Source of the DNA: Escherichia coli
GTDB taxonomy: Bacteria; Pseudomonadota; Gammaproteobacteria; Enterobacterales; Enterobacteriaceae
Length of the DNA: 3,480 nt
Assembly: GCF_003334255.1 (NCBI RefSeq)
Contig: NZ_QOWU01000120.1
Reading direction: 5' to 3' (one strand)
Shown here piece by piece: positions 1 to 3,480 of this stretch. Below the pieces are notes generated by a model. It saw only the letters and a list, made by a program, of their open reading frames with translations. It made no database searches and had not been told where the DNA came from. Each line of letters starts with the position of its first letter. Position 1 is the first letter of the stretch. The position numbers were made by a program, and so were the translations under genes.

Positions 1-1783
<1,783 letters not shown>

Positions 1784-2925: not shown

Positions 2926-3183
2926 GTGAGTAGACCCGCCGGTTACCCGGACGGGCCCTTCCTCAGAACCGGACTTGCTGTCCGCCATCCAACGACAGAG
3001 AGTGCGGCAGTGATGTACAGCCTGATCGGTAGCTGCAAACTTAACGGAATCGAGCCGGAAACGTGGCTACGCCACGTGATCAGTGTAATCAACACCTGGC
3101 CTGCCAACTGCGTGAAAGAGTTGTTGCTCTGTAAGGGGTCGGTTTGGGAAACGGAATTATTGTACGTTAGGAGTATTTTTTAA
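2926..3183 (+). pseudogene. IS66-family transposase (TnpC-like) C-terminal fragment
   Basis: Translation AAVMYSLIGSCKLNGIEPETWLRHVISVI...KELL matches the conserved IS66-family C-terminal motif (MYSLIxTxKLNGxxPxxYLRxVLxRI...ELLP). There is no upstream catalytic domain. GC content jumps immediately after the mcbG stop. No recognisable IS66-type terminal repeat (GTAAGCG.../...CGCTTAC) was found downstream. Confidence 0.55.
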
Positions 3184-3209
3184 CCGATACTGATAAGTAA
3201 CTGCTTGAT

Positions 3210-3279
3210 TTATCGTGATCAGCTATCGCCTTTAAGTTATTGCTTTTCTCTTATCGCATTTAGGTTATCTCATTTCCCT
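3210..3279. repeat. Imperfect tandem direct repeats of about 28 bp (two full copies at 3224-3251 and 3252-3279, plus a partial TTATCG-containing copy at 3210-3223)
   Basis: TATCGCCTTTAAGTTATTGCTTTTCTC compared with TATCGCATTTAGGTTATCTCATTTCCC gives about 21/27 identity, with a 15/17 core, and the copies are directly adjacent. Confidence 0.5.
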
Positions 3280-3344
3280 AAAGGTCTGCCAAAGACCGTA
3301 TAGCGTTGGAGTACACCCAACCGCGATAACGCAACCGTACAATA

Positions 3345-3374
3345 TTGTTCGTTTCCCAAACGCAGCCCTATAAT
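3345..3374 (+). promoter_or_regulatory. Candidate sigma70 promoter: TTGTTC (-35, 3345-3350), 18-bp spacer, TATAAT (-10, 3369-3374)
   Basis: Perfect consensus -10 hexamer with a partial -35 at acceptable spacing. The first downstream ATG is at 3403 and the frame stays open to the window end, but its Shine-Dalgarno spacing is poor. Confidence 0.35.
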
Positions 3375-3480
3375 TCCGGCAAGTGTCATCTGTATTTAAA
3401 GGATGAACCGCCCCGGGTTTCCTGGAGAGTGTTTTATCTGTGAACTCAGGCTGCCAGATCATCGTTTCCGATGGAAGCAT

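Follow-up and report, generated by a model that had tools for sequence, protein, structure and literature searches.

A 234-bp miniature element on an Escherichia coli plasmid, a relative of MITESen1 with a putative res site like that of TnEc1-type transposons

As in Tn3 and gamma-delta, the region between tnpR and tnpA in transposons of the Tn3 subgroup is res, an assembly of resolvase-binding sites which serves both for the resolution of cointegrates and as the operator for both genes. The res of Sin is built from a dyad crossover site and an accessory site made of direct-repeat half-sites. IS101 of pSC101, a 209-bp TIME with a functional gamma-delta-type res, has the order IR, res, IR, and a Tn3-subgroup transposon both mobilises it and resolves it in trans. 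The TIMEs of Enterobacteriaceae comprise IS101, IMU, MITESen1 and TIME244 (Gomi and Yano 2026, PMC13367494). The interior of MITESen1 shows no similarity to the res sites of Tn3, Tn21 or Tn1721, and the question of whether it contains a res was left open in that work (PMC13367494). Here we describe an element of the same concept, IR, res and IR, at positions 3135–3368 of a stretch of E. coli plasmid DNA. We consider it likely, with a probability of about 0.8, that it is a non-autonomous TIME derived from a TnEc1-type transposon and that the short repeats within it are the 14-bp recognition units of the res of that transposon.

The window, by which we mean the whole stretch of 3,480 nucleotides that was analysed, is 100% identical to plasmid pECOED of E. 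coli ED1a (NC_011754.1, IncK2/Z), in reverse-complement orientation. The region is an ordinary plasmid mosaic. From the left, it contains an IS3-family OrfA-like reading frame on the minus strand (2–349), a frameshifted IS91-family transposase (497–1595), and a truncated ABC ATPase together with a 187-aa pentapeptide-repeat protein (1719–2924). These are followed on the plus strand by a C-terminal fragment of an IS66-family transposase gene, its last ~70 codons (2926..3134), which matches NCBIfam transpos_IS66 at profile positions 356–385 of 387 and ends at the boundary of the miniature element; this fragment is the left flank, lies outside the 234-bp element and is context only. The element itself occupies 3135..3368 on the plus strand and is one of three copies in pECOED, which we refer to as copies A (the one in the window), B and C. 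To its right are 35 bp of IncI/K plasmid backbone (3369..3403, plus strand), consisting of the –10 box and 5′ leader that belong to an acyltransferase gene missing from this place, and then the end of an IS3-family element (IS1203/IS629-like; 3404..3480, minus strand) with its terminal repeat and last transposase codons.

The limits of the element are clear from local BLAST comparison with loci on other plasmids. A conserved block running from 3134/3135 to 3368/3369 is 94–97% identical in two of them (L003 and L005), and its edges are sharp, with GGGG(T/G)C... on the left, ...GCCC on the right, and flanks that are unrelated in each locus (L002–L005). The block is bounded by terminal inverted repeats, as the left end (GGGGTCGGTTTGGGAAACGGAATTATTGTACGTTAGGA; 3135..3172, plus strand), on the tnpR-proximal side, is an inverted match to the right end (3331..3368, minus strand). 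Both have the Tn3-family form and a length of 38 bp, with GGGG on the outside and ...GTACGTTAGG on the inside, following the pattern GGGG...ACG...TTAG. They are 80–86% identical to the IRs that bound tnpR/tnpA units in four other loci (L006, L007, L009 and L010); the left IR is 84–86% identical to the IR abutting tnpR in L006 and L007, and 80% identical to the TnEc1-family IR in L009. The length of 234 bp lies within the 50–500 bp allowed for a TIME, the element has no transposase gene or notable ORF, and its interior aligns with non-coding parental DNA. An IS66-derived MITE had been considered on account of GTAAG at the boundary; it was rejected, as GTAA is part of the IS66 fragment and the repeat begins at GGGG.

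The element has left footprints of mobility. TIMEs insert with target-site duplications of 5 bp, or occasionally 6 bp, and the copy in L005 is flanked by a perfect 5-bp target duplication, TTATT. For the family as a whole, scanning metagenomes with one repeat unit as the anchor yielded 120 stretches and 61 copies with both ends recognisable, which fall into two size classes of ~234–236 bp and ~254–258 bp. Perfect 5-bp target duplications flank 12 of the 47 distinct contexts, against ~0.05 expected, and they are AT-rich (TTATT, TTTAA, TAATT, TATAA). Several copies have one flank in common and the other flank different, and exchange of flanks between copies is common. Copy A has no target duplication (flanks TGTAA and TATAA). 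The segment 3184–3372 is present in 392 PLSDB plasmids by megablast, and a more sensitive search finds family-level similarity in ~2400, mostly from Escherichia, Klebsiella, Enterobacter, Shigella, Citrobacter and Salmonella. The large number of insertion sites, together with the relationship of its IRs to those of TnEc1-family transposons, suggests that the element may be mobilised in trans by a Tn3-family transposase.

Other mobile elements have inserted into these ends in some copies. In L002, a 1324-bp IS110-family element that is 90.5% identical to IS4321/IS5075 over its full length sits inside the left end-repeat, the remaining 23 bp of which are found beyond the IS, and a second, different IS110-type junction is also present among the copies. 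IS4321 and IS5075 are reported to target the terminal repeats of Tn21-family transposons (Partridge and Hall 2003). A relative of these IS has likewise entered an end-repeat here, but its target is of the Tn3 subgroup (TnEc1/MITESen1-type) and not of the Tn21 subgroup. Because an IS110-family transposase gene is located ~100 bp downstream of the conserved segment in both L002 and L004, the segment was also considered as the left end or bridge-RNA region of that IS; this was rejected, as the IS sits within the end-repeat of the element and the other half of the repeat is beyond it.

With these boundaries in place, the sequence to the right of the repeats reads differently from before. The earlier note had proposed a near-consensus promoter there, made of TTGTTC (3345–3350), an 18-nt spacer and TATAAT (3369–3374) and directed towards the window end. 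The letters are present as described, but TTGTTC matches TTGACA at only 3/6 positions, a consensus promoter scanner gave no call, and the two hexamers come from two entities: TTGTTC is in the right IR of the element, and TATAAT is backbone DNA outside it. Positions 3369..3403 are identical to an element-free IncI/K backbone (L011) that reads ...GGGCTGTATAATTCCGG...AAAGGA and then continues with CGTGTGAGTATG, the start of the acyltransferase. In this backbone the sequence is GGGCTGTATAATTCCGGCAAGTGTCATCTGTATTTAAAGGACGTGTGAGTATG, an extended –10 located ~35 bp upstream of the acyltransferase gene. In the window, hexamers and gene do not belong to one conserved unit, as those of a sigma-70 promoter would; the TATAAT is an orphan box, and its pairing with TTGTTC is accidental.

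The reading frames proposed for this end of the window fare no better. From 3404 onwards the sequence (TGAACCGCCCCGGG...) has matches in thousands of plasmids, annotated as IS3 family or IS1203 family transposase, and the minus strand of 3449–3478 encodes ...ASIGNDDLAA followed by a stop at ~3446–3448, which is the C-terminus of the transposase. The ORF said to open with the ATG at 3403 is thus IS3-family terminal repeat from 3404 (TGAACCGCCCC...), and the transposase reads the opposite way. A minus-strand ORF at 3265..3480 is spurious, since it runs across three segments of unrelated DNA in a frame other than that of the IS transposase, and the alternative proposal of a small RNA or leader found no Rfam match at E ≤ 1 in 3000–3480. 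The multi-copy matches had also suggested Frpo or single-strand promoter repeats like those in the leading regions of plasmids; this was rejected, as the multi-copy part is the IS3-family end. The "promoter" and the "ORF" are accidental junctions of three unrelated pieces of DNA.

The same junction raises the possibility that the element acts mainly as a portable promoter part, with an outward-facing TTGTTC or TTGTAC in the right end-repeat, 18 bp from its tip, forming hybrid promoters for downstream genes with the AT-rich target duplications. Copy B is located directly upstream of an intact acyltransferase gene and its right junction is identical to that of copy A, so that TTGTTC-N18-TATAAT precedes a gene there, and the target duplications listed above are often –10-like. 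We nevertheless regard this explanation as very improbable. To the poor –35 and the silent scanner is added a spacer that is suboptimal at 18 bp; without the element, the backbone already possesses an extended –10 (TGTATAAT) that is lost on insertion; TTGTTC occurs only in copies A and B of pECOED, the other copies reading TTGTAC; and in the window there is nothing downstream to express.

The repeats themselves, which the earlier note had described as two and a half copies of a ~28-bp repeat with a TTATCGC core, are real, but the basic unit is 14 bp. Tandem Repeats Finder reports 3224–3275 with a period of 14, 3.7 copies, 71% matches and a score of 48. The 28-bp period is a harmonic of this unit, because the self-match of the array is already 0.57 at period 14 (0.64 at period 28) and the 28-nt copies returned by a repeat search are spaced 14 nt apart. 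Of 5000 shuffles, only 20 attain a self-match of 0.57 at any of the periods between 5 and 35, and the array is the most periodic 70-nt tile across the whole window. It consists of four tandem units on the plus strand, at 3223–3236, 3237–3250, 3251–3264 and 3265–3278, with the sequences CTATCGCCTTTAAG, TTATTGCTTTTCTC, TTATCGCATTTAGG and TTATCTCATTTCCC; units 2 and 4 are degenerate. The supposed first half-copy at 3210–3223 is not a unit and aligns instead with the start-codon region of the parental tnpR. A search of the whole window for the 14-mer with ≤3 mismatches gives hits only in this region, two direct and one inverted (3 against 0.29 expected), and a looser search with the core recovers a 14-bp ladder at 3224, 3238, 3252 and 3266 together with an inverted copy at 3319–3328.

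The inverted copy of the motif, at 3316–3329, forms the right half of a dyad; it had been missed in the earlier note. The whole dyad block (GTATAGCG-TTGGAGTACACCCAAC-CGCGATAAC) extends over 3298..3330. Between it and the direct units is a variable spacer (3279..3297), the least conserved part of the family, with a small hairpin, GGTCT-GCCAA-AGACC, at 3283–3297. The hairpin exists as previously described, but it does not rise above chance, since the element contains 3 such hairpins where 1.39 are expected, and ≥3 are present in 19% of shuffles.

The origin of this arrangement is suggested by L006 and L007, two loci reached through matches that cover only the end-repeat. In both, the same type of end-repeat directly adjoins a gene for a 213-aa serine recombinase. 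The recombinase gene of L007 (6047..6688, minus strand) is divergent from the N-terminus of a Tn3-family transposase (MARRQILSLSERESLLALPDDELTL...), and within the 166-bp gap between the recombinase gene and tnpA, positions 6689–6753 match element positions 75–141, which are the repeats, with 74.6% identity (E 2e-8). Intact relatives are found in L009, on pO55, whose transposase is annotated as TnEc1-family (NCBIfam transpos_Tn3, 1127 bits), and in L010, on an Enterobacter plasmid. In L007, L009 and L010 the homologous segment is the tnpR–tnpA intergenic region of 154–168 bp, and its layout begins 12 bp from the tnpR start codon with four tandem units (TTATCGCATTTAGG, TTGTTGCATATATT, CTATCGCATATAGG and TTATGTCATTAATT), followed by a spacer of ~18 bp and a dyad that adjoins tnpA. 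The parental dyad, TTATYGCRT-N14(GGGTGTACCC)-ATGCGATAA, aligns with 3298..3330 of the window. Positions 3173..3222 (plus strand) align with parental TTTTTTAATCAGG (stop) and GATGAACATTTTATCACC (start) and are remnants of a deleted tnpR, namely its 3′ end and start-codon region. In a joint alignment, the entire interiors of both the window element and MITESen1 are collinear with the parental tnpR–tnpA region.

On the strength of these end-repeats and the identical layout of intergenic motifs, TnEc1-family transposons (L009, with its relatives L007 and L010) are the putative parents of the element. The transposons encode both TnpA (~990 aa) and TnpR (~212 aa), whereas the miniature element encodes neither; examples of a TnEc1-type TnpR are WP_000470626.1 and WP_001705742.1. 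An intact closest parent of this exact element lineage was not found. The array region is probably a res site with binding sites for a Sin-like serine resolvase: in the autonomous relatives (L007, L009 and L010) it is positioned between tnpR and tnpA, and it combines four direct units with a dyad whose right half is inverted. From homology and architecture, our guess would be that 3223–3278 are the accessory units and 3298–3330 the crossover site (site I). The parental TnpR is not a resolvase of the gamma-delta type; among proteins of solved structure its nearest relative is Sin/Tn552 Bin3 (2r0q, E 6e-7), while gamma-delta resolvase is marginal. The layout also resembles that of Sin/resH of Staphylococcus, of the Tn552 Bin3 family, although the protein is distant, as this E value indicates, and there are four direct units here rather than two. 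The classic res of Tn3 and gamma-delta has a different design, with three dyads in place of the four direct repeats and one dyad seen here, which makes the assignment of the sub-sites a guess. A literature search on the res site of TnEc1-type transposons or of Tn5403 found no relevant publication.

This homology also bears on which protein would bind the array. The earlier note took the repeats for binding sites of the iteron, partition or transcription-factor operator kind. That they are protein-binding sites is probably correct, but the remainder of the proposal does not fit a mobile unit with which no rep or par gene is associated. Iterons of replication or partition, or an operator controlling a downstream promoter and ORF, would account for short repeats in tandem with a TATAAT box downstream of them, and the copy in L005 does lie ~420 bp upstream of parM. 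However, the array always occurs within an IR-bounded unit of 234–256 bp, and this unit recurs in dozens of unrelated contexts, which have neither a rep or par gene nor any conserved neighbouring gene in common and give it no fixed place in a replicon. Moreover, the promoter hexamers have the two separate origins given above, and the nearest downstream DNA is an IS end, the terminal repeat of the IS3-family element, and no gene. The contexts thus contradict such a reading, and we hold it to be most unlikely that the array is of this kind. Because it travels in an IR-bounded unit and is homologous to the tnpR–tnpA intergenic region, the transposon resolvase is the likely binding protein.

We compared the element with the reference sequences of the named TIMEs, taken from Table S2 of PMC13367494. 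A 256-bp copy in L008 is MITESen1 (255 of 256 positions identical). The window element has 68% global identity to the ISfinder sequence of MITESen1, against 51 ± 1% for shuffled controls, and copies B and C are 77–78% identical to it. The two elements share the 38-bp Tn3-type end-repeats, the four 14-bp units plus dyad and the 5-bp target duplications, and both reside mostly on Enterobacterales plasmids. At 68% identity and 234 rather than 256 bp they are far from near-identical; the window element is 22 bp shorter because it lacks ~20 bp of tnpA-proximal parental sequence that MITESen1 has kept. A further difference is that the end-repeats of the window element resemble those of the L006/L007-type transposon more than those of TnEc1. 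The window element would be separate from MITESen1 under the usual identity cut-offs and is a related but distinct, apparently unnamed element. Against IS101, TIME244 and IMU it shows nothing above background; for IS101, identity outside the end-repeats is 54% compared with 51% for shuffles, and the res of IS101 is of the gamma-delta/Tn3 type. A site like ColE1 cer, which the position of MITESen1 upstream of rop in a small plasmid had suggested, was rejected after the limits of the IR-bounded unit had become known. The question of a res, left open for the interior of MITESen1, is addressed by the homology to the intergenic region of TnEc1-type transposons.

It is possible to envisage how such an element would arise and move. 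A transposon of the order IR–tnpR–res–tnpA–IR would lose both genes and leave IR–res–IR. A related TnpA, supplied in trans, would bind the 38-bp end-repeats and carry out replicative transposition, with a cointegrate and the 5-bp target duplications as its products. Binding sites for the parental TnpR, a small serine resolvase similar to Sin, would be provided by the four 14-bp units together with the dyad at 3298–3330; supplied in trans, this TnpR would occupy them, bring two copies into synapsis and resolve the cointegrate via strand exchange within the dyad. In the full transposon the same sites would overlap the divergent tnpR and tnpA promoters and therefore also act as operators, so that the parental resolvase probably represses tnpR and tnpA as well. 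The boundaries of the element, its end-repeats, the traces of its mobility, its family ties and its homology to the parental intergenic region are observed, and from these we infer a functional res, its occupancy by TnpR and the roles of its sub-sites.

The copies on pECOED allow a closer look at what has happened to the element in one plasmid. Copies B and C are each ~76% identical to copy A, and all three are directly oriented. The left ~175 bp of copy A match the lineage of L005 and L003 at 97%, and from GGAGTACACCC (3308–3318) rightwards, flank included, copy A matches copy B; the last informative sites of L005 type are at 3306–3307 and the first of B type is at 3319. Each of the four possible pairings of a left type with a right type is represented among A, L005, B and C. 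Copy A is a hybrid, and its change from one type to the other falls in the centre of the dyad, which fits strand exchange at that place. A family-wide four-gamete test gave diffuse incompatibilities (Rm = 10) and no clear hotspot at the dyad, and for copy A site-specific and homologous exchange are therefore indistinguishable. The missing target duplication is consistent with a recombinant origin. An empty-site comparison for copy A was abandoned, because its flanks come from different places, the IS66 fragment on the left and the region upstream of the acyltransferase gene on the right, and there is no empty site; this in turn led to the interpretation as a hybrid.

Three direct copies would be unstable on one plasmid if a cognate resolvase were active, and we counted this against the res interpretation. 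The sole Tn3-family transposon on pECOED (~9397–14472 of the record) has a gamma-delta-type resolvase, res motifs of the TGTCCGAAA type and a tnpA interrupted by IS600. Genes for a cognate TnpR or TnpA were not found on pECOED, and this absence may explain the persistence of the three copies. The same facts, namely the lack of cognate proteins and the stable coexistence of the copies, would also be expected if the element were a decayed relic and the 14-bp units the fossil of a tnpR promoter-operator region, carried by pECOED as inert filler. The degeneracy of units 2 and 4 and the want of a target duplication at copy A point in the same direction. Two observations lead us to consider a relic unlikely. 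Across 36 unique and diverged members of the family, conservation is much higher in the units, and above all in the dyad core GTATAGC..GGAGTACACCC, than in the neighbouring spacer, and GGAGTACACCC is nearly invariant. In addition, many copies have fresh target duplications, and flanks are frequently exchanged as described above. Our preferred explanation remains a TIME with the recognition units of a TnEc1-type res.

Reading this locus as iterons followed by a promoter and an ORF was an artefact of mosaic junctions, and elements of this kind are easily overlooked, as TIMEs are missed by annotation pipelines; all matched records showed "none" under the hit. Yet TIMEs are able to move resistance genes within composite structures and to seed plasmid rearrangements. 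The PLSDB plasmids with the 234-bp lineage include a common IncF arrangement of an IS110-family transposase, a truncated element and repA2. We suggest tentatively, and as something that may well turn out otherwise, that the MITESen1 superfamily, with the 234-bp lineage among its members, is made up of portable res sites whose type is as yet uncharacterised. Beyond the resolution of cointegrates, they would act as hotspots of site-specific recombination through which plasmid segments are shuffled, with copy A, switched in the centre of its dyad, and the many copies with swapped flanks as footprints. If this is true, the type would be that of enterobacterial Tn3-family transposons, and its marks would be a resolvase similar to Sin, an array of four direct 14-bp repeats and a single dyad. 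As both MITESen1 and the window element carry the complete TnEc1-type tnpR–tnpA intergenic region, they provide the family with a candidate res and a candidate cognate resolvase.

A second copy of the element, 77% identical, is found in the stretch 14494–15226 of the pECOED record (L012), where it adjoins an intact acyltransferase gene (WP_000670961.1) and lies directly upstream of it. All of the sequence upstream of this gene's TATAAT box has been replaced by the element copy, and the corresponding place in the element-free IncI/K backbone (L011, 2990–3045) reads TGTATAAT. It is possible that the insertion has altered expression of the acyltransferase gene. The same gene adjoins the right end of a separate Tn3-family transposon (about 9397–14472 of the pECOED record), which encodes a gamma-delta-type resolvase of 197 aa, contains TGTCCGAAA-type res motifs, and has its tnpA split by IS600. 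Another transposon of this family, TnEc1-like, occupies positions 1395–8295 of L010, a locus from an Enterobacter hormaechei IncHI2 plasmid; its cargo, placed between the left end-repeat and tnpR, appears to be a set of genes for the detoxification of formaldehyde, namely frmR, frmA, fghA, and one of the VOC family.

The least conserved part of the element family is the spacer that separates the repeats from the dyad (window 3279–3297), yet several lineages keep within it a small dyad of differing sequence (GGTCT/AGACC, AGAGG/CCTCT, and AGGT/ACCT), with pECOED copy C and MITESen1 having theirs at the same position. The spacer dyad may be a candidate for a further protein-binding site. For copy A, a chance estimate puts the small hairpin no higher than random expectation.

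Some MITESen1 copies form sets that have one flank in common and the other different, or that carry their flanks in inverted order (loci L066, L008, L113, and L119; loci L036, L076, and L112), and the left flank GCGAAGAA occurs with four different right flanks. These shared and inverted flanks indicate that deletion, inversion, or composite formation between MITESen1 copies is frequent.

Elsewhere in the window, a truncated ABC-transporter ATPase is followed by a 187-aa pentapeptide-repeat protein (1719–2924), a pair that resembles McbF/McbG, the genes for immunity to microcin B17. The only NCBIfam result is a weak similarity to the Qnr family, and the segment appears to be a leftover isolated among pieces of insertion sequences. 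At 497–1595 a frameshift splits an IS91-family transposase gene into ORFs 497..1474 and 1335..1595, and the minus strand has an IS3-family OrfA-like frame (2–349) that lacks OrfB; both add to the evidence for the window being an IS graveyard.

The left end-repeat of the element is itself a target, as two different IS110-family elements are inserted in it, each at a fixed position (comparison loci L002, 2649–3972, and L004, about 3700–4981; also L035, L090, and L124). About 273 PLSDB plasmids carry a 90–95% copy of the element, most of them in the L004-type arrangement, in which the order is IS110 transposase, truncated element, and IncFII repA2. One of the two inserts shares 90.5% identity with IS4321/IS5075 over 1324 bp. 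It may represent a variant whose target has shifted from end-repeats of the Tn21 type to those of the TnEc1/MITESen1 type; such a shift, if true, would be of interest for bridge-RNA guide specificity.
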